Shown one piece after another: positions 8,366 to 59,201 of a DNA stretch of 64,000 bases (its first letter is position 1; each line of letters starts with the position of its first letter). The notes under the pieces were generated by a model. It searched no databases and had not been told where the DNA came from. It was given only the letters and a program-made list of their open reading frames with translations. This stretch comes from an uncultured Spirochaetota bacterium (GTDB taxonomy: Bacteria; Spirochaetota; Brevinematia; Brevinematales; JAOACQ01): positions 224,001 to 288,000 of the forward strand of contig CAWIGG010000006.1 of NCBI GenBank assembly GCA_963835575.1. Direction: 5' to 3'. A program made the position numbers and the translations under genes.

Positions 8366-8574
8366 AACCACAGATTTCACAGACACTGCAATGTGATTGG
8401 CAGACTCACTTCAAGTTGGTGAAATCATATTATAATTCTGAATAATGGAAGAAGGAACAAAGAGCGATGCGCTAATATATGAAGTAATTAGTGCGGCTAT
8501 TAAAGTCATAATAAATCCATAAATCTGTGTAATCAGTGAAATGGTTCGACAAGCTCACCACGGCGTCTGTGGTT
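8366..8574. repeat. 9-nt-period inverted-repeat element enclosing a GxxExxY-like gene remnant
   Basis: Left arm AACCACAGATTTCACAGA; right arm ATCTGTGTAATCAGTG...TCTGTGGTT. Confidence 0.7.
8445..8522 (+). pseudogene. Internally deleted GxxExxY-family-like remnant
   Basis: Translates as MEEGTKSDALIYEVISAAIKVIINP*, resembling the typical GxxExxY N-terminus (D/E-x-L-T-Y-x-I-I-G-A-A-I-E-V-H). Recognised by eye. Confidence 0.5.
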
Positions 8575-8601
8575 CCAACTTCTCAGATAGTAATTTTTAT
8601 T

Positions 8602-9300
8602 TCACTCGCCGCCCTTCATGCTTGAGAAATCCTGAACGCATTTGAAATAATCCATGCCGTGAAAATCCGTATTTTTATAATGCGCGGCCCCGGTGCCGAG
8701 ATACAGGTATCCGGGATTGAGAATATTTGCCCTGTGGCCGGGAGAATTCATCCATTGTTTAACAACCGCCAGGGCGAAACCCAGATATGTGTGGTTCTCG
8801 ATCGGTTTGCCCTTGTAAGAATAGCTGAAATAGCCGCCGTTCACATCGGGGGTATAAACAGGACTGCCCGGTTCATATTCGATCCCGAAGGTTTCCGCGA
8901 TGTTCTCGCCCATGTACGCGTTCCTGATGCCGGCAAGAGAGAGCCGCTTCTGCATGGTCTCCTTTCCACTGACCGGGCTTTCGTGCGAGAAAAAGCCGCG
9001 GGCTGCCATATCGTCGCTGTGGCCTTTGGCCGCCTTTTCCAGCGCCGGCGAATGCAGGAAGACGGGGAGATTGTGCTTTTCCCTTTCCAGGTTTGAGGCA
9101 TAAAAGATCGCGGCGTGGAGCAGGGGATAATCAATATTGTCCATGTCTATCCGTTCGTTCGCTTCCGGCAGACCGGCAAATGATGATGAATCGTAATTAT
9201 CGTAATCGCCGGATGTCCAGGCTGAAGCTGTGCCGGCCTGAAATATTAAACAGCCTGCCAATGAACAAAAAACAATTATTTTTATGAACATTTTAGACAT
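8602..9300 (-). CDS. Secreted CAP/SCP-domain protein
   Basis: Signal peptide, AAKGHSDDM, FFSH, GENIA, WMNSPGHRANIL. Confidence 0.9.
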   Translation of the reverse strand: MSKMFIKIIVFCSLAGCLIFQAGTASAWTSGDYDNYDSSSFAGLPEANERIDMDNIDYPLLHAAIFYASNLEREKHNLPVFLHSPALEKAAKGHSDDMAARGFFSHESPVSGKETMQKRLSLAGIRNAYMGENIAETFGIEYEPGSPVYTPDVNGGYFSYSYKGKPIENHTYLGFALAVVKQWMNSPGHRANILNPGYLYLGTGAAHYKNTDFHGMDYFKCVQDFSSMKGGE

Positions 9301-9404
9301 AATTCCTCAATACCTCATTTAGTAGAAATTTTATCATCAAATTTTAAAATTTTCATTCCTAAGAATATTCAAGGGATTAAACGGAACTTAAAAAGCCGTA
9401 AATA

Positions 9405-9590
9405 AACACAAGGCACGAAGAGCACTAATTAAATGGGTTTGCTTTCCCGCGAATCACGCGAATTAACGCTAATGTGTCATATGTTTTTTCCCGGAGAATT
9501 ACACCGAATATTATTCGCGTCTATTAGCGTCATTAGCGGGCTTTTATTTTCTATTCCCTTTGCGTCCATTCGTGAATTAGCGGATTACCC
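9405..9590. repeat. Empty 9-nt-period nested inverted-repeat element
   Basis: CCCGCGAATCACGCGAATTAACGCTAAT pairs with ATTCGCGTCTATTAGCGTCATTAGCGGG; a second right arm ends TTAGCGGATTACCC. Confidence 0.8.
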
Positions 9591-9615
9591 TGTCTGATGA
9601 TATGTGATGATTTTT

Positions 9616-10454
9616 TTATTCCACTTTAATGGAATAATCCCGGATTTCGGCATTTCCTGTGCTGGAAACGACCTCATTTCCCAGCTCCAGACATGCGACA
9701 TATTCGTCTTTCGACATGATGCCTTTTTCAAGCAGGTAATCGATAAATGGAGAAATGTCGAGAGGTCCGTTCAGAACCGGTTTGCCGGCCTTAAATGTCG
9801 TTATCGACCAGACATTGCTGTTCGCGCCTGAATCGTCGCCATCGTTTTCATGGTATAAATTGTGTATGTGACGCCCTGGACGGAACATATCCCGATGGGA
9901 TTCCCCGCGGGCTGCAATCCTGATGTGCTGATCCAGATCATCACTTCATTTTTGATTTTATCCTTGACGGGAGGAATGCCCTTGACGGTCCAGAATTCGA
10001 AGGCCATATCATAGGTCCCTGAAGCCGTCAGGGCCGCGCTGTAATTGACCGTCAGCTTTTTTGTCCCGGCCTGGAAGGGAAAGCCTGTGTCGGCGGCTGT
10101 CGGCGTACTCCATGGGCTCGATCCGTACTGGACTTCCGGGTATGCCACCACTCCCCTGCCGTAATTGCACTGCCAGGACCATCCGAAAATTGATTTTCCG
10201 GAAACGTCATTTAAAAATATTTTCTGGCGGTATTTCCCGGTTGCCGCACCCTTGTTCCAGACATTGTTGATCAGCATATATTTCCGGTCAATCAGCTTAG
10301 CTGCCCAGTCCTCCTCGGATTCGAATACCGTTTTTCCTTCGATCCCTTCGAGGCTGAAATTGGGCCTGACGCTTTCCTGAGAGCATGACAAGAGAACAAA
10401 AAAGGCCGCGAGACAAGAGAGCACAATTGATAACAGTCTATTATGCTGTTTCAT
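9616..10454 (-). pseudogene. GH12-like endoglucanase lipoprotein split by a frameshift near 9850
   Basis: 5' ORF has lipobox LLSC, INNVWN, YPEVQYG, YDMAFEFW, EVMIW. The C-terminus (HENDGDDSGANSNVW...LELGNEV) continues in another frame. Confidence 0.75.
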
Positions 10455-10591
10455 AATATTTCTCCAGATTATAAATTTTATGATTGATGGTAATACCTGC
10501 AATCACTCGGGAAAGATTATAATTTGAATAGAAAAAAAGTACAATAAGCCGCCTGCTTTTATTAGAGTATGTATATTTTTATACTTTGAAT

Positions 10592-10960
10592 TCATTCTAA
10601 CTGATTCAATAATTTATGGTAAACAAAATTGGCTATTTCTTTATCAATATTACCGGAAGCTTCTATGAATTCCTGCGCCGGTTTTTCCCTGTCGAGAATT
10701 CCATCCGGCTCTAAAAGCATAATGCCTTTCCACCTGCCCAATCCTTTGCCGTTATTAATGTTTTCATGAATCAGGTCATGTCCCGGCTTCCATGTCGCGG
10801 CCCTGGAACGGCTCCCGTAGCAAAGCTGAAAACTGATAATTTCTTTATTTTTATTATACCAGACATAAAGGTCGAGCGAATCATTATCATCGACAAAAAT
10901 CCTTCTGAACACGCCCTTTTCCGGCTGATTGACGATTTCTTCCTTCAGTTCGTAAAGCAT
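10592..10960 (-). CDS. Hypothetical protein
   Basis: 122-aa ORF with AAGGAA upstream; DLYVWY...FQLCY motif; no function assigned. Confidence 0.65.
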   Translation of the reverse strand: MLYELKEEIVNQPEKGVFRRIFVDDNDSLDLYVWYNKNKEIISFQLCYGSRSRAATWKPGHDLIHENINNGKGLGRWKGIMLLEPDGILDREKPAQEFIEASGNIDKEIANFVYHKLLNQLE

Positions 10961-11161
10961 AATACTAAAATTCCTTTATGAGATATTGTATAAAGCCATT
11001 CCCTATTTTGCAATGTATTATGGTTTTATATTAATTTTTGGAATGAGGGCCATGATTTGTCCTATAATAATTTTATAATAAAGAAAAAAATACTATTGAA
11101 TAAAAGATTAATTTCCGATAAAATCAAAAGACGGAAATAAAAGAATTCCAGGAGTATAATT

Positions 11162-11602
11162 ATGAAAAAAATGCTTTTTTTGTTTATTCTTTTGATATCG
11201 GCCGGTCCGGCCGCTTTTACCGAGGACAGCAGGATCGAGGCCGTCGGTTTTCTGGGCGGCCAGAACATTTATTTTCTTTACACTTCGATAGGCCTCCTGG
11301 CGGACAGCTTTTACGGCGGGGTTTATGACAGCCGGTTTTCTAAAAACCTGGCCAGGGACATGGCGGTTTCCGCCCGGAAATCAAAAGAAACTTTCCAGAA
11401 ATTGATAGATGAAAAAACGCTCCAGGAAAAGGATGCCGAGTTCGGGGCGAATTTAATTGAAGCCTATGATGAGATTATAAATGAGGCGAACGCCTTTATA
11501 AGCACCGTTGATGTGAAGAATGATGAAAGCGTTGAAGTATTCCGCCGTTATAAGACAAAGGCCTGGGAGAAAATTCAGTATATTTTAAAGCTGGATGAAT
11601 GA
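11162..11602 (+). CDS. Hypothetical exported protein
   Basis: AGGAG RBS and N-terminal signal peptide. Confidence 0.75.
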   Translation: MKKMLFLFILLISAGPAAFTEDSRIEAVGFLGGQNIYFLYTSIGLLADSFYGGVYDSRFSKNLARDMAVSARKSKETFQKLIDEKTLQEKDAEFGANLIEAYDEIINEANAFISTVDVKNDESVEVFRRYKTKAWEKIQYILKLDE

Positions 11603-13164: not shown

Positions 13165-13175
13165 AGTTTTATCCG

Positions 13176-14820: not shown

Positions 14821-16746
14821 ATGAGTGAAAAAAGTTTTATTAACGGAATATTGAAAAAGGCCGGAGATATTTTTCAAAGTATTATCCCCGGCAGAAGGAC
14901 GAAGAAAGAAAAATTCCGAAAGGTGTTCTTCGGCCTGAGGATCCGGTTTCTCGCGCTTCTTTTTATATTCATGACGGCCATCATTTTTGTGCTGACCGTA
15001 GTGATGTTTTTAGACCAGAGAAGGATCCTCCAGCAGGAAAAAAATGAAAAGGCGGGGATTTTCACGCAGATCCTCGGCGGCCCTGCCGAATTTTACCTTG
15101 ACCGCGATATAAAGACCACGGCGCAGGACCTTAAGGTCAAGTATGAGATTATTGTCAAGGAAGCGGCCAATTTCAAGAGATATAATAATGATATCGAGCA
15201 GATCCTCCTTTCGGACAGAAATAAAAAGATTGTCTTCAGCGCGTCGTCCGCCGATGTCAGGACATACAGCGAGCTTCCGTTTATAAAAGACGCGCTTTCG
15301 CAGAAAAAGGAAAGCCTGACCTATTATGACTTTAAAATAAAAAAGAAAAATAAAAAAGAGGAGCGGTTCCGCGCCTTAACTTATCCCATCTTTCTTCATA
15401 ATGGAGAGCTTGTGGACGTCCTGGCGGATTATAAAAAATATTATCTCCCTTATGAGGCATCTGACAAAAGAAGGAAAAATGAGATTTACAGGATACTCTG
15501 GACGAAATATAAAGATAAACTCGGGAAAGATTTTGAGGCCGTAAAAAACACCGGCGGTAAAAAAGCCGCTAAGGAAACAACAGGCCAGGTGGTAAAAGCC
15601 GGCGATATAGATTTTCTCTTTTTAAAAGTCTTTTCAGAAGTCATGAAAGACCGGAAAGAGAGGATCCAGAAAGCGGACGAGGTACTGCTCGCCGGGAAAT
15701 GGCTCGAGTCCTTTAAAAAGGACAAGATCGACGCCTATAAAAACGACAAGGCGACAGAGGCCGGCGATATCCAGAAAAAGATCATGGAAGCGATGAGCAT
15801 GCTTTCGCAGGATCTGGATGACGCCAGGCTCCTGGGGGCCCTGTCCATCATTTTTAATGTGAACAGAATGGGCGAGGATATTGACAAGAATGTCACGACG
15901 GCCATGATCATCGCCGGTATTATTCTGGCGTTCAGCATTGTTGTTTCATTTTATGTTGTTAATTTCATGGTCAGGAACTTAAAGAAGCTTGAAAAATGGG
16001 CGCTGGAGGTCAGCGCGGGAAATATTGATAATAAAGTTGTCATAGAGCAGAGGGATGAGATCGGCAGGCTATCGGATATTTTTAATAACATGCTGGATGA
16101 GATAAAGATGAAATTCCACCTGGAGAAATATGTCTCCCAGTCCACGCGCTCCATGATAGAACAGCAGAAAGGCCGCGAAGAATTCCCGGTCCTCGGTAAA
16201 ACGGACAAGAAAAATCTCGCCTTCATATTTTCCGATGTGAGGGGATTCACTTCCTTCTCTGAAAAGAACCAGCCTGAAACGGTGATAGAGGTCCTGAACC
16301 TTTATTTTGAAATACAGGCAAGGATCATCAATAATAAAAAAGGCGATATCGACGATTATGTCGGCGACCAGATCATGGCGCATTTCAGCGGCGATAAAAA
16401 GGCCGACCTGGTGCTTTCGACGGCCGTTGAAATTATGAAGGAAGTTCAAAAATTCAATGAAGACCGCCAGAAGAAGAACCTTCCGTATTTCGAGATCGGC
16501 ATCGGGGTGCATGGAGGCGATGTTGTTGTCGGGAATATCGGCTCCGGGTTCAGGATGGACTTCAGCTGTATCGGCGACGCGGTGAACCTGGCCTCGCGGC
16601 TTTGTTCCGCCGCCGCGCCTGGCGAGATCCTTGTTTCAAAGGCCCTGTTTTCCCAGGCTCGCCAGTTTTACAGGACGCAGAAAGTGGAACCGATCGAGGT
16701 CAAAGGCAAAGAGAAAAAGATTGATATCGTCAGAGTATTGTTTTAA
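14821..16746 (+). CDS. Membrane-bound HAMP-domain class III nucleotide cyclase
   Basis: Two TM segments, HAMP (RDEIGRLSDIFNNM), FSDVRGFT, VGDQIM, GIGVHGG, IGDAVNLASRL. Confidence 0.92.
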   Translation: MSEKSFINGILKKAGDIFQSIIPGRRTKKEKFRKVFFGLRIRFLALLFIFMTAIIFVLTVVMFLDQRRILQQEKNEKAGIFTQILGGPAEFYLDRDIKTTAQDLKVKYEIIVKEAANFKRYNNDIEQILLSDRNKKIVFSASSADVRTYSELPFIKDALSQKKESLTYYDFKIKKKNKKEERFRALTYPIFLHNGELVDVLADYKKYYLPYEASDKRRKNEIYRILWTKYKDKLGKDFEAVKNTGGKKAAKETTGQVVKAGDIDFLFLKVFSEVMKDRKERIQKADEVLLAGKWLESFKKDKIDAYKNDKATEAGDIQKKIMEAMSMLSQDLDDARLLGALSIIFNVNRMGEDIDKNVTTAMIIAGIILAFSIVVSFYVVNFMVRNLKKLEKWALEVSAGNIDNKVVIEQRDEIGRLSDIFNNMLDEIKMKFHLEKYVSQSTRSMIEQQKGREEFPVLGKTDKKNLAFIFSDVRGFTSFSEKNQPETVIEVLNLYFEIQARIINNKKGDIDDYVGDQIMAHFSGDKKADLVLSTAVEIMKEVQKFNEDRQKKNLPYFEIGIGVHGGDVVVGNIGSGFRMDFSCIGDAVNLASRLCSAAAPGEILVSKALFSQARQFYRTQKVEPIEVKGKEKKIDIVRVLF

Positions 16747-16977
16747 TTTAAAGAGGACTTTTCTCTCAACAACAAGACACAAAGAACACGAAGAACCACC
16801 AACGGGGTAATCCGCGAATGCACACGAATGGACGCGAATGAGGGGAAATTAACAGGAAGATTGTTTTAGTTAAGTCAAGAAAAAAACAATCAAAATATTT
16901 AAAAAACCTCAGTAGTTCGATATAATAAAGGCGGAAGAAAATGGAGGTGTTGCTCGCGGAATATTTCCGCAGGGTTT

Positions 16978-18252
16978 CTAACCCACTTTTGCCACCCCGT
17001 TTTCTTCCATTTTCCTTATATTTTCAGACTCATAGTCCTTTAATATCCGAAATATCTTACGGACTAATGCTCTGGCAACCCTTTTATTCGCTTCGAGCCT
17101 GCTCATTCCATTTTTTATCAAATTCCTGTGCATGCCGGAAATATGGTGGTCCGGATTCCAGTGAACAAAGTTCTTGGCCGCGTTCATAAAGGCGTTTTTC
17201 AAACGGCGGTTATAATCGTGAGTATGTTTCATCTTCTTTCTTTCACCCCTATTTTTCTTTCCGGTTTCATCTTCCACCATACCGAATCCCGCATATAACG
17301 CCAGGCTGTCCTCTTTAACAAAACGATTGATATGAATAATCTCGGCTATCATCGTAGAGGCAGTGATCACGCCGATTCCTTTCAACCCATTGCCATTGGA
17401 TTCGTCATAGGCTAAAACCCGGACAGCTTCCCTGGATTCAGCCAGATTATCCAAAATCTTCTTCATTTCTTCCTTATGGCCTTTCAAAAGAATAATATTT
17501 TCAGCAGATTGCCGGATCATCATGGAAATGGGGCCCGCTACACCCAAGATTCTTTGGGCTATTACCTGTAAGCCGGCGATGGTCTTATCCCGGCCTCTAT
17601 AAGAGCCTCCACCCATCAGCTCTTTCATTTTCTCCGCACTTAATCTCCTCCATTGGCTTAAATCGGGACAATTACACAGCAAATTCAGTACTCCTGCGCT
17701 ATTCAAAACATTATGTCTGTTATCCGTCTCCATATTCTTGCCGCTTAAGAACAGGTAAACATCCGGGGAAGCCTCGCATAAAAGCTTCCACAGCCCGGAT
17801 ATTTCCTCTGTGATCCTGCCGCTTACACTTTCATATTTCCGGGTTATCGTCTGTAATTCGCTGTCAACAGGATAGACCCTTCTCCATTTTTCCAGAGAAC
17901 CGTTCATTTCACGCTCTAAAGCCAAAAGAGCGGCGGCATGAGCATCCTTTTCGTTGTTCTTTCCCGCCGGGAGCTGGCTTTTCCTCTTTTGTTCAACATC
18001 CCTTGCTTTAAACGAGTAATAGGTCATCGATTCCTTACGAAGCACTTTCTCTAAGGGCTTACTCTGCCCGTTGCTTCCCTCGATGGCGATAATCGGGTCA
18101 TTTTTCGACCGAGTCCATTCGATCAGATTATCAAGGCCGCTTGTGGTAACCGGAAAGGCTTTCCGTTCCGTTTTCCAGTCTTCCGCTTTGACATACATAC
18201 ACACATACTGTTGTGAATCGGGATCAATCCCGATAGCATCCCGGATTAGCAT
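16978..18252 (-). CDS. IS110-family recombinase (DEDD RuvC-like plus Tnp domain)
   Basis: GIDPD, IAIEG, KNNEKDA, KGIGVITASTMIAEI, RF...LALYAG...ETG, YNRRLKNAF, ARALVR. GGAGG RBS. Confidence 0.9.
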   Translation of the reverse strand: MLIRDAIGIDPDSQQYVCMYVKAEDWKTERKAFPVTTSGLDNLIEWTRSKNDPIIAIEGSNGQSKPLEKVLRKESMTYYSFKARDVEQKRKSQLPAGKNNEKDAHAAALLALEREMNGSLEKWRRVYPVDSELQTITRKYESVSGRITEEISGLWKLLCEASPDVYLFLSGKNMETDNRHNVLNSAGVLNLLCNCPDLSQWRRLSAEKMKELMGGGSYRGRDKTIAGLQVIAQRILGVAGPISMMIRQSAENIILLKGHKEEMKKILDNLAESREAVRVLAYDESNGNGLKGIGVITASTMIAEIIHINRFVKEDSLALYAGFGMVEDETGKKNRGERKKMKHTHDYNRRLKNAFMNAAKNFVHWNPDHHISGMHRNLIKNGMSRLEANKRVARALVRKIFRILKDYESENIRKMEENGVAKVG

Positions 18253-18277
18253 TTTTTCCTCCAGCAGATTAAAATAT

Positions 18278-18455
18278 CAGACCGTTCCATTTCGGCACCC
18301 TTGTAATGAGCGACAGGATTATTCAAGGGAATATCCTGGCAATTGTTTTAAGAGACCAAAACGGTCCTTGTGGAGTTGGCAATCTTCCTGTGTGCCTTGG
18401 TTTCAAACCAGAAGGCAGGCGGGTAGTGAGCAACAACTTCCACAAGGAGGTATTC
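18278..18455 (-). ncRNA. Putative IS110 bridge RNA (target-binding and donor-binding loops)
   Basis: Two stem/internal-loop domains whose loop segments match the flanking target (CCCGCCT; ACAGGAAG) and the donor junction (TAAAACAAT; TTACAAG). Transcript ends are approximate. Confidence 0.82.
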
Positions 18456-18671
18456 TACTGAAGAATTATTTTTTGTAAACTTTTTCTCCAAAATATAGCT
18501 TACAAGGCGGGAAGACACGAAGAACGGGGGTAAAGGGGTGGCTACGCCGGTAATACAGAGGATGTTGTTTGATAATCCTTTTTTGTTTTTATTAAAGCTG
18601 ATTTATAACCCCAATTGAACGCGGATGACGCGGATTAGGGCGGATAGTCGGCAGAGCCTGCCCTGAGCTTG

Positions 18672-18757
18672 CAGACTGTGTGAAAAGTCATCAAATTGTC
18701 ATCCCTCGACTCCGCTCGGGATGACAACACTTAAAACACGATTTTTCACTCAGTCTG
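18672..18757. mobile_element. 86-bp MITE-like element inside a REP-like palindrome
   Basis: TIRs CAGACTGTGTGAAAA / TTTTCACTCAGTCTG, TTG on both sides, interrupting CCCTGAGCTTG|TCGAAGGG. Confidence 0.65.
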
Positions 18758-18967
18758 TTGTCGAAGGGCTCATCACAGGTTTATAGGATTTGGTTTTACT
18801 TAAATCTGCCTGTGTTGTTTTACTCTCTGCTTAATATGATATAGGACACTTGTGGGAGGGCGGGCTGCGCCCGGCGGACAGAAGAGTAAGCAGTAGTTTA
18901 TTTCTATGTTTTATTGGGGTTTAAATTCAAATATTTCGATTATAGTGTATGAAGGAGGAATATTGAA

Positions 18968-19468
18968 ATGTCATTCATTTTTAATGTAAATGAAATTGTT
19001 CTTAAGGAGAGAAAATCTCCTGTTCCGGAATTTACCTGGCATACAAGTGAAAAATTAGCCGAAATAACAAAATCTAAATACCTGGATTTCTACATTCGTT
19101 CTCTGGATCCGGATAAATTTTCTTATCCATATCATTTTCATCGAGATTCGGAAGAAATATTTGTCATATTAGCCGGTGAAGTCACCCTGAGAACTCCAAG
19201 AGGATTTCATACATTAAAGAGTGGGGACATTATCTTCTTTGAAACAGGACAGGACGGAGCTCATCAACTTTATAATCATACAGATAAATCTTGCCGGTAT
19301 TTGGATATTCGTACGGCTACTGGAATAGATGTTTGCGAATATCCGGATTCAGGGAAAATAAATATAATACCATATCAGGAAATTTATAAATCTAAAAATA
19401 AAGCTGATTATTATCAAGATGAAAATGATATCAGGAATAAATGGCCGAAAGAAATTCTCAAAGGTTGA
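18968..19468 (+). CDS. Cupin domain protein
   Basis: PYHFH..SEEIFVILAG, GDIIFF...AHQLYN, VCEYPDSGK. Confidence 0.88.
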   Translation: MSFIFNVNEIVLKERKSPVPEFTWHTSEKLAEITKSKYLDFYIRSLDPDKFSYPYHFHRDSEEIFVILAGEVTLRTPRGFHTLKSGDIIFFETGQDGAHQLYNHTDKSCRYLDIRTATGIDVCEYPDSGKINIIPYQEIYKSKNKADYYQDENDIRNKWPKEILKG

Positions 19469-19592
19469 TCTTGATAAAGACTTCCCGTCTTCCTGTTAAC
19501 CCTTCACGCTTTTCCCAATTCGCGTCTATTCGCGTGTCTTAGCGGATTACCCCGTTGGTGGTCCTTAGTGCTCTTGGTGTTTTGGTGGTAAA

Positions 19593-22997: not shown

Positions 22998-23404
22998 TTT
23001 TCTCCCCCTGTCATTGATTTCTTTTAATCTATATCGAAATATGAGTAATCATATTTAAACTCTTTTCAAATAGTAAAAAACTTTCATGTCCAGATAACCG
23101 CTTCATATTTGGACGATAAATTAAAATGCTTCGGCATTGCCAATGGCATGGCCGCAAGGCTTAAAAATAAAAAAGGGAATCATCAGGGATAAAAATAGTT
23201 TCATTAAAATCCTCTCTATTATTTTTGATTGATAAAACCGTTTTCTAGTAAAACCTTAAAGCCTGTCAAGTTGATAACAGTGAAAACGCGTTTTTCCGAT
23301 CTATTTTAAACATCGGATAAATACATGACTTTACTTCAACAGCTCTTTCCTTATATATCCAGGGTTATTAGCGTCTATTCGTGATATTAACCCCTTACCG
23401 CCCC

Positions 23405-27856: not shown

Positions 27857-27939
27857 GAATATATTTAATATTTAGTTAAATAGTGCGGTTCTTCCGTGAA
27901 AATGCTATAACTTATTGTTATATTATGATTTGAAAATTA

Positions 27940-28022
27940 ACCACGAAGAACTCGAAGCACACGAAGATAATTTATTCTAAAATAGTAAGTAGCAAATTCG
28001 TGAGCTTTGTGAACTTCGTGGT
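27940..28022. repeat. Empty 9-nt-period inverted-repeat element inside the gcv cluster
   Basis: ACCACGAAGAACTCGAAGCACACGAAG / TTCGTGAGCTTTGTGAACTTCGTGGT. Confidence 0.8.
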
Positions 28023-28124
28023 GTAAAAATCGCTCGGATTAGGTATGAGCGGATTTAATAAATTATATAATATTTAAATACCGGCAGTTGACTGATGACT
28101 GCCGAATGATTTAAGGAGGCAGAT

Positions 28125-28496: not shown

Positions 28497-28525
28497 AATA
28501 CCCGATTTATTCAGAACAAGAAGCA

Positions 28526-28668
28526 GTCATTGCGAGCGTCTGACTTGATACTCTGCCGGGAATTTTTATGCGAAGCAATCTGTCTGCAATAAAGATTGCT
28601 TAATGTATAGACAGATTGCTTCGCGCGATAGTCAATGGCAAAGGAAAAAATCGGGTGCTCGCAAAGAC
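28526..28668. repeat. REP-like palindrome (GTCATTGCGAG family)
   Basis: GTCATTGCGAGC...GCGAAGCAATCTGTCT...AGACAGATTGCTTCGC...GCTCGCAAAGAC. Confidence 0.8.
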
Positions 28669-31537: not shown

Positions 31538-31708
31538 AAAGCCGTCATTGCGAGCGTCCGGCACTGCCCCCGGAACTGATTATAGTGCGAAATCCCCGAT
31601 CAAGTCGGGGATCAGTCTGCGAATATAGATGACTTAACGTGTTGACAGATTGCTTCGCACGAGAAAAATCGGCATAGTATAAAACTGGTTGCTCGCAATG
31701 ACGGCTTT
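31538..31708. repeat. REP-like palindrome (GTCATTGCGAG family), second copy
   Basis: AAAGCCGTCATTGCGAGC ... GCTCGCAATGACGGCTTT with an inner ATCCCCGA/TCGGGGAT hairpin. Confidence 0.82.
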
Positions 31709-44680: not shown

Positions 44681-45087
44681 ATTATAATTCACCACTAAGA
44701 ACCACATAAGGTAATTTATGATTCTTTTATTTGCCTATTGAGGCTTATGATTATAGAGCCTTTTTTGTAATATCCGATTCGGCACACAGATTAACACGGA
44801 TTATTACGGATTTTATAGGATTTAGTTTTGTTTAGAGATGCTTTTTATTTTCACTTGTTGCATACAAGATAAATAGGACGATGGGGCAGGTTTAAAGGTG
44901 TTGGGGGGGCTACGCTTGTTTTCAAGGATATGTAGTTTTACAGGAAGAAAGGAAGGCGGGAAGAGTGTCAGGATATTAATAAAGTATAGTTTATTTATTT
45001 GTTTTTAATATATTTTCTATTTGACCAACTAAAGTAGGAGTAGATTCAATATTACCTTTAATATAACCAGTTTCAACAACTTCAAAA

Positions 45088-46483
45088 GAGTTTTTGTCAA
45101 ATGTTGTGTATGACATACCCTCTCATTTTTTTATGCTGCCTTTTTTACAAGCTCTCCGTTCTCAAAAACAGCGCCTTCCAATACAAGGCTAATCTTTTCA
45201 TAACCTCTTAATTTTCTCCATCGCCTGGATGCCTTATCCAGTAATTTATAGACCATTATTAGAATCGTTTCCCTGGTTCCGCAGCCTCTCATCTTTTTAG
45301 TTCTTAATCGAACTGTAGAGAAGGTAGATTCTATTACGTTTGTCGTACGGATATGTACCCAATGTTCCGCCGGACAGTTATAAAATTCGATCATAAGCTC
45401 CCAATCCTTTTCTAAACATTCGACAGCTGCTGGATATTTAGGATTAAAAACCGCCTGGAATAATTCAAAAGCTTTGATAGCATTATCCTTATCAGGAGCA
45501 TTGCATATCTCATGAAGCATCTCTTTTGCCTTTGACTGTAATACTTTGGGCAGCTTGTTTAGAATGTTCTTTATCTTATGAACCCAGCATCTCTGCCATC
45601 TGGATTCAGGATATACTTCTTTGGCTGCTTTCCAGAATCCAAGGCTTCCGTCTCCGATAAAAAGAATAGGACCTTTCAAACCTTTTTCTTTTAGGTTTCT
45701 TAATATCCCTAACCAAGTCTCGGAATTCTCTCTGTAACCTTCTTCAACAAGAATAATCTCCTTTTCACCATTCTCATTGGCTCCGATCATTACAAGAGTG
45801 CATAAACGGTCTTCGCTGCCCTGTACATTGAAGTAAATGCCGTCAACCCATATATAGCAATACTTTTTATCGCTTAAATCGGATGTCCGCCACTCATCAT
45901 ATTCTTTACCCCATCCTTGTTTCATTCTGCTTATACTTGAGGCTGATAATCCTTTCGCTTCTTCACCAAGCAATCCTCTCAAGGCATTCTCCATATCCAT
46001 CTCTGAGACTCCATAGAGATACAACAATGGAATGGCTTCCTCAATTCTCAGGCTTTTTCTCATATACGGCGGTACTATTAGGCTTTGAAAATTGTCGCCT
46101 CCGAGTCGGTTCCTTGTTCTCGGAATACATACATCAATAGCCCCTCCACCAATGAGAATCTGACGGGCTTTATGATACCCATTTCTTACTATTGCCTTTC
46201 TCCCGTCTTCGATAGTTAAATGCTCTCTCTCCTGAAGAAACCCATTAATTTCATCTTCCAGAGCCTTCTTGATTATTTCCCTGGCCCCGATCCTTGCCAA
46301 TTCTTCAAGACATAAAAATTCTACTGTTTCATCTTGATTAAAAGCCTGTAAGAGCTTAAAATCTTCGTTGTGCTTCGGCATATGGCGTATTCCTCCTTTT
46401 GTTTATTGTCGTAAATAAATTATAGAGGGTACGCCATCTTTTTTAAAATATTTATTCCTATACACAACTTTCTATTATAACTC
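45088..46483 (-). mobile_element. IS256-family insertion sequence
   Basis: Imperfect IRs GAGTTTTTGTCAAATGTTGTGTAT / GAGTTATAATAGAAAGTTGTGTAT. 9-bp target duplication ACTTCAAAA at 45079-45087 and 46484-46492. Confidence 0.93.
45131..46381 (-). CDS. IS256-family transposase
   Basis: RNGY, YIWVDG, IGDGSLGF, QRCWVH, RTTNVIES. Confidence 0.95.
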   Translation of the reverse strand: MPKHNEDFKLLQAFNQDETVEFLCLEELARIGAREIIKKALEDEINGFLQEREHLTIEDGRKAIVRNGYHKARQILIGGGAIDVCIPRTRNRLGGDNFQSLIVPPYMRKSLRIEEAIPLLYLYGVSEMDMENALRGLLGEEAKGLSASSISRMKQGWGKEYDEWRTSDLSDKKYCYIWVDGIYFNVQGSEDRLCTLVMIGANENGEKEIILVEEGYRENSETWLGILRNLKEKGLKGPILFIGDGSLGFWKAAKEVYPESRWQRCWVHKIKNILNKLPKVLQSKAKEMLHEICNAPDKDNAIKAFELFQAVFNPKYPAAVECLEKDWELMIEFYNCPAEHWVHIRTTNVIESTFSTVRLRTKKMRGCGTRETILIMVYKLLDKASRRWRKLRGYEKISLVLEGAVFENGELVKKAA

Positions 46484-47852
46484 ACTTCAAAAATAATTTT
46501 ACCTAACTCTGCGGCTATTTTATCTTTTATTTCCTTATCCTCAATTGTATCAATAAATGCTATATAAGTTTCTAACATAACATGTTTTTGTTCGAAGATA
46601 TATGATAAATTTCTATTGTTTGAATAATTACGATTGAAGAAAAATACTAACCAAGCTAATATCGAAATAATTCCAACTTTACTTACATTTACACTAATAA
46701 TAATATTTTTAATCTTTTCTTGGAAATTATATTCAAGCCATGAGATTCCAGCAAAAATAATAATTAATAAACCTATTGAAAAAAAAGTAGTAATTTTCCA
46801 GATATTAGCTATATCATTAAATTTTTTAGCTTTTATTTCAAACTGTTTTTTATATTGAACTGCTAATTTCCCTTTTAAGGTTCTTCTTGCTTCTTCAAGT
46901 AATTCGTTAGCTTTCTCAATAGCTTTTTTGCCTTCATTTTGTACTTCTTTTTCAAATTCATTAAATTTAGAAACTTTCTCTTGAATTTCACTTTTATATG
47001 TTTCAATTTGTTTTAATAGGTTTTCTTTTTCGTTTATAATATCTATACCTTTAGAGTTGATCTTTTGATATGCTGAAGCACTTAAAAGTATTGGAGAATT
47101 TCCAATTATATCTTTTCTAAGACTAATTAATCTTGTTAAAATCGCTGCTTTTTTTTGTAGTAATATATTAGAATTTTTAACTTCTGCCCATTGTGTTTTT
47201 GAAATGTCTATTAAAATATTTGAATAAGTGCTTTTATATGTTTCAACAGTAGGTAATAATTGACCTATAATAGATTCATTTCGATTAACCATATCAAATG
47301 AATTAAAAAAAGAATCAAAATCATTTGTTAAATTACTTACTTCTTCAAATTTCAGATAACTAAGTTCTGGTTTAGATTGTATTTCTTCATAAATTGTCAT
47401 TTATACCCCCAAAATGAGATACAATTAATATTATGATGTTTAGTGTACCATATTTATTTAAAAGTTGTCAAAAGATAATATTGTACTATTTAGGTGGGTT
47501 AGTCTTATTATGCGATTCTTTTACGATTTTATCATGTCAGGATTTTCCAGGATGAGCCTACTTGGAAATTCTATTAGCGTTCTATGTTACATTCGGAATC
47601 GGACAAAATAATTCAAGCGGCTTGGGGAATAACTAAATCCTATAAATCCGCTTTAATCAGTGCTCATCCGTGTGAAAAATCGGATATAATAATTTGGATT
47701 CTTTAATTAAGTCTATAATTTTAAACTAAAGAGCCGTTAGTTATCTTCCTATCTTCCTGTTCCTTTTCCTCGTTCGTGGTCCTTTGTGCTCTTCGTGATC
47801 TTCGTGTTGAGAAAAAAAGCATCTCAATTCAACAAGATTGCTTTTTTAAATT

Positions 47853-48908: not shown

Positions 48909-48992
48909 TCCGCGAATTCACGCGAATCAACGCGAATGGGAAAAAGAATAAATAATTATTAGCGTCTATTCGCATGGCTTCGCGGATTACCC
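48909..48992. repeat. Empty 9-nt-period inverted-repeat element
   Basis: TCCGCGAATTCACGCGAATCAACGCGAAT / ATTAGCGTCTATTCGCATGGCTTCGCGGATTACCC. Confidence 0.8.
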
Positions 48993-49980: not shown

Positions 49981-50017
49981 ATGGCCTCCTCTATGTAATA
50001 TATAAAGCTTTGCCTAT

Positions 50018-50403
50018 TAACCCAATTGCACACAGATTTTCTCGGATTTCACGGATTAGCGCGGATTTTATTACGGTTAAAGTTAGTCACAGTTATTTTG
50101 ATTTTTTGTCATTAGTTTTCATGAATAATGTTAAATCTTCACAAAAATTATACTCTATTAATCCCGGCGTTGGCAAATATTTATCCCGAAATATATTATC
50201 AACTCTTTCGAAAAAAATTTTAATTTCAATGGAATTTAATTAAGTGTAGTTCCTCACTAATTTGTAGGCTTCACATGAGCTGCCTTTCCTGAGCATTGTA
50301 CTGAGGTGAAGCCGATGTGAAAGCGAAAGAAAGTCCACACTTTACTCATCTTTTGATCTGTGTAAATCCGCTATATCCGTATAATCCGCGATTAATTGGG
50401 GTA
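50018..50403. repeat. 9-nt-period inverted-repeat element with non-coding AT-rich interior
   Basis: TAACCCAATT..CACAGATTTTCTCGGATTTCACGGATTAGCGCGGATT / ATCTGTGTAAATCCGCTATATCCGTATAATCCGCGATTAATTGGGGTA. Confidence 0.78.
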
Positions 50404-50428
50404 TTATAACCAATAAATACTAATGAAA

Positions 50429-50974
50429 TTAAACTTTTCTCGGTTCGGAAGCGTTGATCGCCGGGTCGGTATAGATGTCGGCGTAGTCGCGGCTTTTGGT
50501 GGAGAATTCCGAGATGACGGCGCCTTTCGGCCCGGCCTGGAACCAGTGCAGAGTGTCCGGCGGAAGGGTGTACTGTTCGCCCGGCCGCAGGACGATCTCA
50601 TGGCGCGCGGTAAAAAAGGCCTCTTTTCCCTTCGGGGGAACGGCCTTTATTTTCGCGGCGCTTTCGCCGGGGATGTAAAGATAGACTTCGCCCCACCGGC
50701 AGCGGAATGTCTCTTCCTTGCCGGGCCCGCCTTCCACAGCGGGATGGCGGTGCTCGGGGCATGTCTGGCGCGGAAAGAGGATCAGCTCCTTCGCGCAGCA
50801 GCGGTCCGTATTCACGTAGACGACCAGTTCCAGCCCGATGGATTCCGGCATGCCGAGTCCGTATTCGGCCGCTTCCATCCCGGAAGCTTCCTTCGGGGTG
50901 ATAATAATATTAGATTTTTTTAGGTATGATAAAGCGCGCTTTTTGAATTTTTCGTAGAGGGCTTTTGAAAGCAT
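50429..50974 (-). CDS. D-lyxose/D-mannose-family sugar isomerase (cupin)
   Basis: YVNTDRCCAKEL, QTCPEHRHP, GKEETFRCR, HWFQA, SEFS. Confidence 0.9.
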   Translation of the reverse strand: MLSKALYEKFKKRALSYLKKSNIIITPKEASGMEAAEYGLGMPESIGLELVVYVNTDRCCAKELILFPRQTCPEHRHPAVEGGPGKEETFRCRWGEVYLYIPGESAAKIKAVPPKGKEAFFTARHEIVLRPGEQYTLPPDTLHWFQAGPKGAVISEFSTKSRDYADIYTDPAINASEPRKV

Positions 50975-51265
50975 ATTAATCTCCTTTTCTTTTATTTAAT
51001 TTGCAGAGGCCGCAGAGGGAACAGAGGCCAGAGATATACTGTATTTCTTCTGCCTTTATTACATTATCAACAAACCTGGGATTGGCTGCCGTCATTACGG
51101 GGATTTAAACACGCATTAATATTATAAATAAAAATGATAAAAAAACAAATCATTATTGTCATATTCAAATAAACAATCAGCGTCTTGAATAAATTAAAAG
51201 TCCGGAGTATAATATTAATAAATTGTGTAATTATTCATCATAATAATGGAAATCAAACAGGGGGT

Positions 51266-52923: not shown

Positions 52924-53011
52924 ATGAAAATGGTTTCCCCATGGCCAGTTGCGTATCGCGGCCGGCCATTTTTTGCTGCCGTGATGCGGCGCCAGCTGTA
53001 TCACGCTCCTC

Positions 53012-53047: not shown

Positions 53048-53066
53048 CAGGCCAGTTATTTATGTT

Positions 53067-53861: not shown

Positions 53862-54057
53862 AAATAGATTCCTCCCGAAAAAAAATCTTTCCTTTCCCCT
53901 TCTGCCGCATCCCTGAAGATACGGTAGAGGAGGAAAGATAAAGAGATATTTAAACCATCGGTAAAATAAGAAATTTATTAAGAAAAACAGGGATAATTGT
54001 TTTTTCATCGCTGTTTACTTATAATAATGCTTCAGATAGTTAACTGCGGGTATTAAG

Positions 54058-54951: not shown

Positions 54952-55018
54952 TGTCTGCCTCACCCCGCCTCGCAAGGCTCGGGAACCGCTGGAGAGGGGG
55001 ACGGGGGTGAAGCAGGCA
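54952..55018. repeat. REP-like palindrome
   Basis: TGTCTGCCTCACCCC...GGAGAGGGG...GGGGTGAAGCAGGCA. Confidence 0.5.
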
Positions 55019-55095
55019 AAATCCAACAAACGGAGTATTGAACCGGAATAAATTAACATATATAATTATAGTACATAATATATCAGGAGTTCTTC

Positions 55096-55983
55096 ATGTC
55101 TGAAGGGAAAAAAATGGTTATCTCGCTCGTCATTTTTGTCGTTTTCTTTGTTGTTCTGGTGATTGTGCTGAACAGGGAAAAGAACAAAAGGGATATGGCC
55201 GATGTCGATACGAATATCATTCAGGGAATGGTTTTTGTCAAGGGCGGGACATTTGATATGGGTACTTCGAATGGGGATAAATACGATATGCCTCTGCATA
55301 TGGTGACGCTCAGCGATTTTTATATAGGGAAATATGAAATTACTTATAAGGAATATGACCGCTTCTGCATCGCCGCAGGTTACAGGGTACCGGATGATAA
55401 AGATATGGGCAGGGGCAATAAACCGGTTATGGATGTAAACTGGAGGGACGCAACTGTCTTCTGCAACTGGAAGAGCGCTCAGGAAGGCTTTCCCGCCGCC
55501 TATGACACCAATACCGGCGGACTGCTGGATTCGAAGGGAAAAATCACCCATGACATCACAAAGGTGCTTGGCTGCCGGCTGCCTACGGAAGCCGAATGGG
55601 AATTCGCGGCGCGGGGCGGTGTTAAATCAAAAGGATATATTTACAGCGGCAGCGATAACCCGGATGAAGTGGCCTGGTATGCCGAGAATACTTATTTTAA
55701 AACTTCCGTAGTCGGCAAGTTAAAGCCAAACGAACTCGGGATTTACGATATGAGCGGGAATCTCTGGGAATACTGCAATGACTGGTATACTCCGTCCGCC
55801 GGTACGGAAAGCGTCACCAATCCGGCGGGCCCTCAGACCGGAAAAGAGCATATTGTCCGCGGGGGCTGTTATAAGAGCAGGCCGGATTTCGCGTTAAAAC
55901 TCAGAAAGGGCAACCGGTATTTTTACTTTCTCTCCCGCCGCGGCTATATTACCGGCTTCCGCATAGCACGGTCTGCGCCTTGA
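55096..55983 (+). CDS. Formylglycine-generating enzyme (SUMF1)-like domain protein
   Basis: GGTFDMG, RLPTEAEWEFAARGG, NELGIYDMSGNLWE, GFR. Confidence 0.9.
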   Translation: MSEGKKMVISLVIFVVFFVVLVIVLNREKNKRDMADVDTNIIQGMVFVKGGTFDMGTSNGDKYDMPLHMVTLSDFYIGKYEITYKEYDRFCIAAGYRVPDDKDMGRGNKPVMDVNWRDATVFCNWKSAQEGFPAAYDTNTGGLLDSKGKITHDITKVLGCRLPTEAEWEFAARGGVKSKGYIYSGSDNPDEVAWYAENTYFKTSVVGKLKPNELGIYDMSGNLWEYCNDWYTPSAGTESVTNPAGPQTGKEHIVRGGCYKSRPDFALKLRKGNRYFYFLSRRGYITGFRIARSAP

Positions 55984-56027
55984 AAATTTATACAAATATT
56001 CTTGATAAAAAATAAAATATTTCATTA

Positions 56028-56305
56028 AACACCAAGGTCACCAAGGGCACAAGGAAACACAAAGTTTAGGGCAGTTCTAAAAATCAAAAAATTCTTATTA
56101 ATTAAGAACTTATTATTCTTTCAGTACAATATTTTTGGCATTTCCAAAAACACTAATTTGCTATTCATGGTAGTTTTTGGAAATACCCTTAATAAAATTT
56201 CTATTTTTATTTCAATCAGTATATTAAATTTCATTATCATAAATAAAATAAAAGGTAGTATATAATTATTTTGGTGTTTCTTGGTATTTTGGCGTTTTTG
56301 TGGTT
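56028..56305. repeat. 9-nt-period inverted-repeat element containing a MITE-like palindrome
   Basis: AACACCAAGGTCACCAAGGGCACAAGGAAACACAAAG / TTGGTGTTTCTTGGTATTTTGGCGTTTTTGTGGTT; inner AGGGCAGTTCTAAAAA...TTTTTGGAAATACCCT (56068-56189). Confidence 0.72.
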
Positions 56306-56356
56306 GGCAAAAAGAATTTAACCTGAATCGGGAATCCTAAATGATTAAAAAGCTTT

Positions 56357-57283
56357 TTATTTTTCTATGAACGATTTAATATAATCATAAACTTTTTTGT
56401 AAGTCGAATTATACATGGTCAGCAGGTGGCGCGTGTGTTTCCAGCCGTCCAGGCTGAATTCGATTTTCTGCTTATCGGCCGATGAGATATGGCTGTAGAT
56501 ATAAGCCATGTTCTCAAAAGGAACTGTTCTGTCTCCCCTGCAGTGCATGAGCAATGCGGGAATTTTTATTTTATTGAGGTTTTTCCTTGTCTCCCTCATT
56601 CCCATGAGCATGCTGTATATCTGGCGCGGGAAAACCCCATAGAAACCAAGCCAATTGGCGCCGTCGTCGTCAGTTTTTTTGTTATCCTTCTCAATATATG
56701 GTATTTCGCTGATAAGCCATGATATTAACCTGATCATATACAGTTTCCAGTCATAAAGAACACGCTCAAAAATATTATTTATAAAAACAGGTGTGGAGAT
56801 GCTTATGATTTTTTTCATGGCCAGCTTTTTATCGCCGCCGAAATCCTCGGCAAGCCTTAAAGCAAGCATTCCCCCGAATGATAGACCGCAGACAAACACT
56901 TCCTTATACTTCGGCCTGTATTCCAGGTAGGTGTCTTTCAGGCTTTTATACCACTGGGCAAAGCATGTTTTTTTAAAAAAAGCTTTTGTGGTCCCGAACC
57001 CGTAATGACGTGGGATCAGTACGTTATAATCGCTTGAGAGCAGTACGCCGATTTTTTTCCAGTCAAAAGGAGTGCTCGGGAATCCATGGAGAAGTATGAC
57101 AAGCCTGGAGGACTTTTTATTCGCGTAAAACTGTTCTTTCGCGTTTTTGTCCATCAGGGGGGGCTCGTCATTCCTGTCATAAGCGTCTCTTTCAGTATAA
57201 AAAACCGGGAAGCTCCCGGAAATATAAATCAGCGCGATCAATATTAAAATGATAATGACGGCGATTATTAAAATATTAATCAT
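56357..57283 (-). CDS. Alpha/beta hydrolase (carboxylesterase-like)
   Basis: LLHGF, GLSFGG nucleophile elbow, D.TVP, C-terminal His. Confidence 0.88.
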   Translation of the reverse strand: MINILIIAVIIILILIALIYISGSFPVFYTERDAYDRNDEPPLMDKNAKEQFYANKKSSRLVILLHGFPSTPFDWKKIGVLLSSDYNVLIPRHYGFGTTKAFFKKTCFAQWYKSLKDTYLEYRPKYKEVFVCGLSFGGMLALRLAEDFGGDKKLAMKKIISISTPVFINNIFERVLYDWKLYMIRLISWLISEIPYIEKDNKKTDDDGANWLGFYGVFPRQIYSMLMGMRETRKNLNKIKIPALLMHCRGDRTVPFENMAYIYSHISSADKQKIEFSLDGWKHTRHLLTMYNSTYKKVYDYIKSFIEK

Positions 57284-57435
57284 AAATGCATCCTTAGCTA
57301 TTTATTGATATCATTTTATCATTTATTTTGATAGTATGCAATAAGCCGCAGAATTTCACAGAACTACACTGAATTATAATATGATATTTAATTTAAGGAT
57401 AAAGTTTTCAGAATTATGATTAAAAAAATTTAATA

Positions 57436-59011
57436 CCTAAATTCCCAGAGTTCCGCGATTTCCGCTTGAAATCAGCCTTGCGCGGCACTGCTTGGCATCG
57501 GTTTATCATCCCAGTCTCGCGGCTGCTGCAATTACAAGCCTTGGCGATGCCTGAATACTCGTAAATCCACAAATTCCGCTGCTCCGGGCGCAACACACCC
57601 TTGTGGCGGCCTTCACATCATCCGGTTGGGAACTCGCTATATCTGCAGCTCACATAAGTGGCAGTAAAATTTCCGCCACCGGTCCTTATCCGCAAAATAA
57701 CGGCTCAACACCAGTTTTACCTGATGGCCCTGTCTCACGATTTTCCCCGCAACCCGAATAAACCACGCCCGGAATGTTTCCGGTTCTTCCCGGTGACTTT
57801 TCCGGTCAACCAGATACCGCATCCAGATTCCAACGTTATACGCCAGCACGCTGCAGCTCCACAGAAAATCATTCACCCAGAAATCTTGCGTCAGAAGCAT
57901 CCCGGCGAACATCTGCTGCTTCACGGCTTCGATCCAGTTTTCACACGTACCCCGGTCACCGTAAAATTTATGGCCCTGCCAAGGTTTCAAACGCATATTC
58001 GTACAATAGCAAAAATAGTCATAAACCGCTTTCGGGAATACCAGCCCTTCCGTTTCTATCCGGATCAGCTTTCTGACAGCTATGAACCGCCTCGCATGTT
58101 TCCATCCATGCGCCCGGTACTCAAATTCCGCCTGTTCCCAGCCGCTTCGATCCGGAACCGCTGTCCAACCCCTGTTTTCCAGAAACGCCGCGAGGTTTTT
58201 CATTTTGGCTTTGACCAGAAAAAAAGCCCCTTTCATTTCTTCGATGACATCGAAAATCCTTCCGTCGAAAAATCCGCTGTCCATCCGGAACACAAGTTTT
58301 TTCCAGCCGGTATGGAGTATTCCGTAAATGTGCCGGATAAATTCAGGCGCGTTATTCGCTGTGTAAGCGTCGCCCGGCCTGAAATAGGAGAGAATACATT
58401 CCCTTGTGCTGTTCAGGAATGCCAGAAGCGGATGATAGCTCTTCGCTCCCTTTTTATGCGGATTGTAGCCTGCCGCCGCTCCTTCCTGGCTTCCGTAAAC
58501 CGTCTTGACGGTCGAATCGCAGTCCACGATTTTCGTTTTTACCCGGAACTTCGCGTGGACTTTGCGGGAAAGCTTTCCGTTCAACTCATTCATCGCGTAA
58601 GATTCTTTCATACCAACGTTTTCAATCCGCTTGATGATCGTAGAATCACTGATCGGCCCTTTCAAGCCCAGAGCTGCCCGGAACAATGGATCTTCAGTAA
58701 AATTCTCGACCTTCTTGATCCGGTTATACCCTGCCATCAGCGCGCACACGATTCCCGTAATAATTTGCTCGAACGAGAATTTCTGGTTACAATATTCCCG
58801 CGCTGGAATAAATTTTTTGAGCAACTGATTGAACCCAATCTTTTTCAAAAATACCAGCACGGGATAAATCCCGCTCACGCTGCTCAAATCCTGCGCCGTA
58901 AAACCAACTTTGATGTTTTTCACCATTTGGGTGCTCCTTCTGTTGTTTTGTAAAGCAATATATTATAACAGATTGGGGCCCCATTTGGTATTTTTACTTT
59001 GGGAATTTAGG
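57436..59011 (-). mobile_element. IS1380-family insertion sequence
   Basis: IRs CCTAAATTCCCAGAGT / CCTAAATTCCCAAAGT (16 bp, one mismatch). 5-bp duplication TAATA at 57431-57435 and 59012-59016. Confidence 0.93.
57637..58926 (-). CDS. IS1380-family transposase
   Basis: DCDST, YGSQEG...GYN, YHPL, RPG, RMDSGF, YGDRGTCENWI. Confidence 0.93.
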   Translation of the reverse strand: MVKNIKVGFTAQDLSSVSGIYPVLVFLKKIGFNQLLKKFIPAREYCNQKFSFEQIITGIVCALMAGYNRIKKVENFTEDPLFRAALGLKGPISDSTIIKRIENVGMKESYAMNELNGKLSRKVHAKFRVKTKIVDCDSTVKTVYGSQEGAAAGYNPHKKGAKSYHPLLAFLNSTRECILSYFRPGDAYTANNAPEFIRHIYGILHTGWKKLVFRMDSGFFDGRIFDVIEEMKGAFFLVKAKMKNLAAFLENRGWTAVPDRSGWEQAEFEYRAHGWKHARRFIAVRKLIRIETEGLVFPKAVYDYFCYCTNMRLKPWQGHKFYGDRGTCENWIEAVKQQMFAGMLLTQDFWVNDFLWSCSVLAYNVGIWMRYLVDRKSHREEPETFRAWFIRVAGKIVRQGHQVKLVLSRYFADKDRWRKFYCHLCELQI

Positions 59012-59201
59012 TAATAATTTATTTCCGTGATCTTCTGTGAAATTCTGTGGCTGATTCATTGGAATTGGAAAAGTCTTGAGTTGTCGATGAAAAAGCATTA
59101 TTTTCCACTCAGGCCGTAATTTCAATTTTGACAAAAAAATGATAGTAAGATATTATTATATCCGCAGTATGTCAATAATTAAAAGAGGGAACGGTTTTAT
59201 T

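Follow-up and report, generated by a model that had tools for sequence, protein, structure and literature searches.

Arrays of a phased 7-nt word bracket GxxExxY genes, gene remnants and foreign genes in a Spirochaetota genome and may be the ends of a selfish nuclease cassette

The window analyzed here, a stretch of 64,000 nucleotides (nt) from an uncultured Spirochaetota bacterium (positions 224001-288000 of contig C6 of genome G000), raises the question of what the short, phased repeats between many of its genes are the ends of. An earlier note on this DNA had described nine intergenic loci and two partial arms, in which units of about 9 nt faced their reverse complements across empty spacers or unrelated genes, and had proposed a gene-shuttling or excisable-hairpin system with no cognate enzyme in evidence. 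We examined these repeats across G000, in congeners (among them G002 and G003) and in more distant genomes. Probably, a 0.5-kb cassette with one gene of the GxxExxY family (TIGR04256/PF13366) has these arms as its two ends, and the elements in the window would be gene-less, nested or cargo-filled descendants of that cassette.

An arm consisted of about three words of the form C-[AG]-C-N-[AG]-A in a row. The periodicity described earlier was retained, with a period of 9-10 nt and not strictly 9, and the consensus consisted of direct tandem copies of a 7-nt word in place of a tagged palindrome. A plain regular expression for two words gave 178 matches in G000 vs. 35 and 29 in two shuffles that preserved 3-mers. 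The genome-wide motif search that the note had called for was carried out with a chain model, built on seven subtypes of the word and trained with the arms of G000 itself; it found 472 arms scoring at least 24 bits in G000 vs. 2 and 0 in shuffles. At a threshold of at least 22 bits the set comprised 541 arms, only 31 of which lay within open reading frames (ORFs) of at least 150 amino acids (aa), though such ORFs make up 82% of the genome. Between neighboring arms of this set no more than 300 nt apart, 113 pairs faced inward, 9 outward and 84 lay on the same strand. A subtype was common to both arms in 111 of 131 adjacent inward pairs (mean 29 and maximum 44 in 2000 shuffles), and about half of the arms (263/541) were unpaired. 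The E subtype (CACGGAG word) accounted for 36 arms in G000. Inside the window the model placed 23 arms of at least 18 bits; on the left it missed the degenerate arms at 9404 and 44690, on the right the one near 56305, but these are visible in the sequence, so that each of the nine loci and the two partial arms could be confirmed.

That the left and right arms form inverted repeats was borne out in part. Aligned between the outer coordinates of each locus, they beat shuffles at five of the nine loci (16768, 27940, 48909, 50018 and 57344) and did not at 8366, 9405, 44691 and 56028, where arms were interrupted, degenerate or of mixed subtype. Selection for a hairpin was rejected, as the arms of one element were no more alike than arms taken from different elements (43.5 vs. 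50.2 for subtype A, with four of five subtypes lower).

The gene most closely tied to the arms was GxxExxY. G000 contained nine such genes, all above the family cut-off and none within the window, and inward-facing arms, read by eye, bracketed all nine. The homologue set comprised 80 GxxExxY loci from a species collection spanning several phyla; among the 77 with enough flank, 60 carried both arms, compared to 8 in a wrong-orientation control and 1 in a distal control. The enrichment of GxxExxY between arms, which the earlier note had suggested checking, was thus present, and its statement that no cognate enzyme is evident no longer holds, GxxExxY being a strong candidate. The interiors of the G000 elements were unique, many carried differing deletions of the cassette, and non-arm sequence was partly common to 164 of 333 loci. 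A six-frame profile search of G000 for GxxExxY remnants recovered only one beyond the nine genes; nucleotide comparison was needed to reveal the gene starts in the window that are listed below.

A separate transposase acting in trans (an HUH Y1/Y2 enzyme or a DDE insertion sequence (IS)) could instead move the cassette, with GxxExxY as passenger or helper. Each A-type end is able to fold a small local hairpin, like HUH substrates, some B elements sit within another inverted-repeat family, and G000 is rich in IS. Of the 147 frames flanking GxxExxY genes, however, most belonged to operons (among them sufD-sufS, gmd-fcl and CTP synthase); no partner enzyme recurred, and at E <= 1e-12 the frames included a single DDE transposase, neither a Y1 nor a Y2 enzyme (the latter being that of IS91-type rolling-circle elements) and no integrase (attC models were not run). 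A search of G000 with PF04986 gave no match, and its control gave none either. Word subtypes that follow the GxxExxY tree, element ends that are not fixed at the inverted repeats and the content of the flanking frames make a transposase in trans improbable in our view. Several IS families are present in G000 in 5-33 near-identical copies each, and the window itself holds IS66 and DUF772-type transposases at 1624-3081 and 62354-63460.

The GxxExxY protein, the product of the cassette's single gene, is 125 aa long. Its G19-E22-Y25 motif was invariant, and catalytic-type residues E22, D62, E72, K74 and Q86 were kept in 20 of 20 sequences. The predicted structure was confident (predicted local distance difference test score 95.8), and its best structural matches were PD-(D/E)XK nucleases (Z 8.1, root-mean-square deviation 3.3, 96 aligned residues; Cas4 at Z 8.0); the model's resemblance to PD-(D/E)XK enzymes, among them Cas4 and lambda exonuclease, was modest in score. 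Foldseek returned nothing for the model at E <= 0.001. On the predicted structure, GxxExxY is a PD-(D/E)XK-fold protein and a putative nuclease.

Word type clustered on the GxxExxY protein tree (34 changes vs. 54 when shuffled). At 68 of 71 loci, counting the downstream arm only, position 5 of the word was G where one position of helix 1 was threonine and A where it was another residue. Along the tree there were 8 residue changes, 9 base changes and 10 joint changes. The tie between the helix-1 residue and the base at position 5 of the word is suggestive.

With the cassette as a reference, the loci of the window could be read as follows.

8367..8574, + strand: A-subtype (CACAGAT word) element, internally deleted; a short palindromic repeat from a different family splits its right arm.
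8419..8515, + strand: GxxExxY element remnant with promoter region and gene start (ATG at 8445), by sequence match to C5:384643.
9404..9592, unstranded: stack of a degenerate left B arm (9404), an inner C pair (9444-9543) and an extra right C arm (to 9592).
16768..16860, + strand: composite left arm of B, C and the start of a ACAGGAAG-type arm; 70 nt are 84% complementary to 19518-19587.
16861..18506 (ends approximate), - strand: IS110-family element in the ACAGGAAG-type arm, transposase at 16978-18252 (Pfam PF01548/PF02371).
18507..18900, + strand: remainder of the composite left arm, together with an F arm at 18608-18645 and a small inverted-repeat element nested at 18672-18757.
18968..19468, + strand: cargo, a single-copy cupin gene (PF07883), guanine-plus-cytosine (GC) fraction 0.34, patchy in the phylum.
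19490..19590, - strand: composite right arm (ACAGGAAG-type, C, B).
23365..23385, - strand: solitary degenerate C arm (19.5 bits).
27940..28022, unstranded: empty B-subtype pair at the gcvT-gcvH junction (chain model).
44690..44830, + strand: left stack of a degenerate B arm and an F arm (44772).
45088..46483, - strand: IS256-family element (PF00872) with a target duplication of 9 bp, located in the cargo gene's 3' end.
46420..47400, - strand: cargo, an AT-rich (GC 0.24) gene for a coiled-coil/membrane protein of 326 aa, its 3' end cut by the IS256 element.
47620..47810, - strand: right stack of an F arm, heptamer-like repeats and a B arm.
48909..48992, unstranded: empty C-subtype pair.
50019..50402, unstranded: F-subtype pair without an ORF at the sugar isomerase-pfkB junction.
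51000..51035, + strand: solitary E arm (23.1 bits).
56028..56305, unstranded: B-subtype pair, right arm degenerate, around a small inverted-repeat element from 56069.
57344..59055, unstranded: G-subtype pair (43-nt inverted repeat) with a GxxExxY gene-start remnant (57386-57418).
57436..59011, - strand: DDE_Tnp_1_4 insertion sequence (PF13701) inside the G pair, with a 5-bp target duplication.

The GxxExxY-like remnant suspected in the window was found at two places. Positions 8419-8515 matched the GxxExxY element at C5:384643 at 79.6% over 98 nt (E 2e-17; tblastn 57% over 21 aa), and 57386-57418 matched two GxxExxY gene starts at 80-85% over 34-35 nt. The locus at 9405-9590 was not one inverted repeat but the stack listed above. 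The three long elements of the window owe most of their length to the IS110, IS256 and DDE_Tnp_1_4 insertions, whose transposases had gone unnamed earlier; the cupin and the AT-rich membrane protein gene described within them are indeed present. About 30 copies of the IS256-family element and about 10 of the DDE_Tnp_1_4 element occur in G000. The protein encoded at 46420-47400 had no Pfam match and a single homologue (36% identity, 345 aa). The module order of 18507-18900 recurs at C4:995671, and a promoter scan of 18500-19000 gave none.

The IS110 element is arm-targeting: the window copy and five others in G000 all lie within a ACAGGAAG-type arm, whose word stood before five of five left ends read and was continued by six of six right ends. 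The small inverted-repeat elements at 18672-18757 and 56069-56190 are nested within arms, and for one of them G000 contains near-identical copies at other places. A second repeat family (GTCATTGCGAG ... GAAGCAATC hairpins), which we take to resemble Ssn-type repeats, flanks gcvPA-gcvPB at 28521-28668 and 31544-31707; the gcvH-gcvPA junction measures -4 to 18 nt in congeners. An adenylate/guanylate cyclase gene (14821-16746), located elsewhere in congeners, here adjoins an element-bearing junction.

Empty and filled states, both of which the earlier note had reported, were also found at the same junctions in relatives, along with gene-deleted and single-arm states. The gcvT-gcvH junction measured 268 nt in G000 vs. 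10-12 nt in four of four congeners, and a contig of run X3 skips 27871-28108. Likewise, the sugar isomerase-pfkB junction was 448 nt in G000 vs. 7-10 nt in four of four congeners, and in an X3 contig four letters replace 49990-50432. Congener G002 carried full cassettes at two junctions of the window's syntenic block, one of which is 11 nt long in the window. Of 20 Scalindua genomes, 12 had an empty cytidylyltransferase-CTP synthase junction, G032 and G060 a full cassette there, G062 a partial one, G057 the arms only and G054, G056 and G061 a single arm; in one the junction was unreadable. The full insert measured 536 nt, with flanks of about 39 and 23 nt beyond the arms, and showed no duplication. 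A second Scalindua site was empty in four genomes and occupied by other hairpin repeats or an arm remnant in four more; at one Rhodopirellula site, four differing internal deletions were seen. The Scalindua pair G070/G071 offered zero orthologous sites for comparison. In Scalindua G070 (loci L320 and L322), a GxxExxY cassette, cargo-filled and empty pairs recur before repeated copies of one downstream gene, and tandem single arms are also present.

No clear target duplication emerged from the pairs of relatives or from tests of the flanks, in keeping with what had been noted for the window elements. Pairs of empty and filled sites gave 10-40 nt of additional flank without a duplication; duplications of 2-4 nt at variable offsets would still be compatible with these pairs. 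No consistent offset appeared in 91-125 pairs, and the best of 5334 fixed offsets scanned was backed by four cases. Flank word-sharing was 4.53 vs. 4.47 over 25 nt and 6.29 vs. 6.14 over 60 nt, with a slight excess at 12 nt (3.42 vs. 3.22, standard deviation 0.08). Arms at unlinked Scalindua sites had 10-20 nt of outer flank in common, which indicates that flanks travel with the arms. With junctions assigned by best BLAST match, 7 of 15 G002 element junctions also held arms in G000, four of them of another subtype, against a background of 9% (17% for convergent junctions).

True cargo exists: low-GC single-copy genes are strongly enriched inside arms in G000 and in a congener. Single-copy ORFs of at least 130 aa with GC below 0.34 lay inside inward arms in 13 of 316 cases and between outward arms in none, whereas the remaining single-copy ORFs did so in 3 and 26 of 2676 cases, respectively (Fisher p 2e-8). 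One of the 13 is GxxExxY itself, which leaves 12 cargo genes. Same-subtype pairs enclosed an ORF in 31 of 168 cases vs. 2 for outward-facing unpaired arms. The claim that arms enclose unrelated genes stands for these, while most of the long 'cargo' of the window is later IS insertion. The cargo of G000 included a RhuM-family gene, a type IIG restriction-modification gene with a Panacea antitoxin, an IrrE-like peptidase with DUF4411, a kinase and DUF2971, and most of it belonged to no family. Some cargo genes had long stacks on both sides, with the modules in the same order. In G002, in a sample of 19 stretches picked from pattern matches, nine A-type pairs held unique ORFs (GC 0.19-0.30) with the cassette's inner ends kept, and five pairs were empty. 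The cupin gene of the window had homologues in 4 of 400 other genomes of the phylum. Two cargo sites of G000 were compared with congeners, where the flanking genes were adjacent (G003, 22 nt) or other genes stood without arms; a cargo swap between arms was not captured at either site. At locus L318 (G002:C1:1371988-1383527), two A arms surround 11.5 kb with a phage-integrase gene; the junction is about 50 nt long in G000.

These observations also bear on the possibility that the arms are host regulatory sites, either for IHF/HU or another DNA-binding protein or as operon-tuning RNA stems, with foreign genes gathering in tolerant AT-rich spacers. Such a reading was made for Geobacter metallireducens (PMC2700814, in its accessible part), and the short empty pairs do fold better than shuffles (DNA fold z -6.7 at 27940-28022 and -2.5 at 48909-48992). 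Yet the link to GxxExxY is tight in many phyla, the same junctions lack arms in congeners, an element's own arms are no more complementary than foreign arms, foreign genes lie inside inward arms rather than beside them, and Rfam had zero matches in the window. We consider host regulatory sites very unlikely.

Another possibility is a domesticated system like Ssn/NTS, in which incoming or single-stranded DNA would be cleaved by the nuclease at the words and recombination thereby gated, the repeats spreading as a by-product and the cargo arriving by such recombination. The gene lies between its own repeats, as does ssnA (the accessible part of PMC11893778), and variable, defence-like genes do occur inside arms; GxxExxY was also present on 8 of 72,556 plasmids and in zero records of a phage collection. 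A gate of this kind accords poorly with cassettes that sit at unrelated junctions, are gained and lost among congeners and decay in place, like selfish elements and not at a conserved locus, and with several GxxExxY copies being broken. We judge it an improbable explanation.

The account we favor, as the likeliest though far from certain, is a selfish nuclease cassette. The association of gene and arms, lineage-specific presence at operon junctions, decay in place, nesting and foreign genes inside are observed; binding, cutting, joining and the movement of loaded elements we infer. The GxxExxY protein would recognize and bind its own phased word and likely cut some tens of bases outside the arms, which could account for the 10-40 nt of extra flank and for the absence of a fixed target duplication. 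The cut piece would enter gene junctions through host repair or recombination. Internal deletion would then remove the GxxExxY gene, leaving arm pairs or single arms, and new elements, as well as IS110, IS256 and other repeats, would land preferentially in old elements, by which stacks may have been built up. Foreign genes would replace the interior, most likely by recombination at the arms, while the arms and the inner 50-100 nt stay, so that an element might work as a reusable slot. We entertain more tentatively, and with considerable doubt, a broader proposal of integrase-free gene capture in many bacterial phyla, in which a 125-aa PD-(D/E)XK nuclease would read phased 7-nt words by a simple residue-to-base code, open slots at operon junctions and drive arm pairs to exchange foreign genes, including those for defence.

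Several results weigh against the selfish-cassette account. Neither binding, cutting nor movement was observed, and a 125-aa nuclease without a strand-transfer domain leaves the joining step unexplained. Near-identical gene-less copies were not found, the best 40 alignments of at least 80 nt and 95% identity being other inserted repeats or IS ends, and so recent copying in G000 is not evident. The exact three-word arm pattern was present in 8 of 10 relatives with a GxxExxY match (missing in two) and also in 6 of 20 without one. On the tree, empty alleles of Scalindua are embedded among filled ones (G054 with G072, support 100/99), which requires precise loss, allele replacement or repeated invasion. 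The residue-base covariation comes down to five independent contrasts on well-supported branches (sign test p 0.125). Finally, no cargo gene was present twice in G000, and none of the 60 cupin homologue loci with enough flank (of 84 elsewhere) was bracketed; gene shuttling as first proposed is not supported by either result.

If the cassette account is right, a large family of unknown function, PF13366/TIGR04256, gains a concrete, testable substrate, and AT-rich accessory and defence-like genes may have a route into operons that needs neither an integrase nor a classical transposase. As with Ssn, the nuclease might also become a tool, being tiny and having a word preference that appears to track one helix residue.

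In mobile insertion cassettes (MIC231) and other passenger-carrying IS derivatives, the element ends are kept and the enzyme gene is replaced by a passenger gene. The elements described here are similar in that ends are kept and the enzyme gene replaced (nine G002 pairs, 12 G000 genes), and they differ from these and from MITEs (miniature transposable elements with inverted repeats) in having no DDE transposase, fixed ends or clear target duplication and, among the best 40 alignments, no families of near-identical copies. The arm pairs are inverted and dispersed across G000, unlike an integron, which has an IntI integrase and attC cassettes in tandem. The distinction from CRISPR, integrons and classical MITEs drawn at the outset is upheld.

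Closer parallels are found among small enzymes with cognate repeats. In REPIN/RAYT systems, REPtrons and TIRtrons, as far as the accessible parts of PMC3116915 and PMC3733652 go, a small enzyme gene likewise lies between cognate repeats, many extragenic inverted doublets lack the gene, several repeat-enzyme groups co-exist and insertion into existing repeats occurs. The REPIN/RAYT enzyme is an HUH Y1 tyrosine transposase and its unit a short palindrome with a GTAG/CGTC-type tag, whereas here the enzyme is GxxExxY of the PD-(D/E)XK fold, the arm is a tandem array of a 7-nt word and the interiors are gene remnants or foreign genes. The Ssn nucleases with their NTS/SRM repeats (Chenal 2025, PMC11893778, in part) are again single-domain nucleases encoded between their own repeats, with hundreds of dispersed copies, and cleave beside rather than in the repeat, which would fit the flanks seen here. 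Ssn combines a GIY-YIG domain with a hairpin SRM, in contrast to the PD-(D/E)XK fold and phased words of the present system, and the accessible text describes no cargo brackets.

The arms themselves have been in print since 2009 as the 'class 2 predicted global regulator binding sites' of G. metallireducens, putative IHF/HU sites (Aklujkar 2009, PMC2700814, in part). Those sites consist of three tandem TCTCCGTS[Y] units, the reverse complement of our subtype E word, with 21 opposite-strand pairs around variable unique spacers in intergenic positions, as here. The E-subtype arms of G000 are of the same make, having three tandem CACGGAG-type units in opposite-strand pairs at variable distance, and the 2009 repeats could be recast accordingly. 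The accessible part of that paper proposes no nuclease gene, mobility or cargo, and deals with one subtype vs. about seven stacked ones here. For PF13366 (PDDEXK_3)/TIGR04256, PMC3424549 gives function unknown and multiple transfers, with repeat arms and a cassette life cycle unmentioned in its accessible part; PMC2996986 and PMC3543383, so far as accessible, treat multicopy repeats only in general terms. No paper linking GxxExxY to arms was found in the open-access literature, and a description may exist elsewhere. The system is a real, widespread and apparently undescribed variant of the 'small enzyme plus cognate repeat' theme, seen here in an extreme multi-subtype expansion with foreign cargo.

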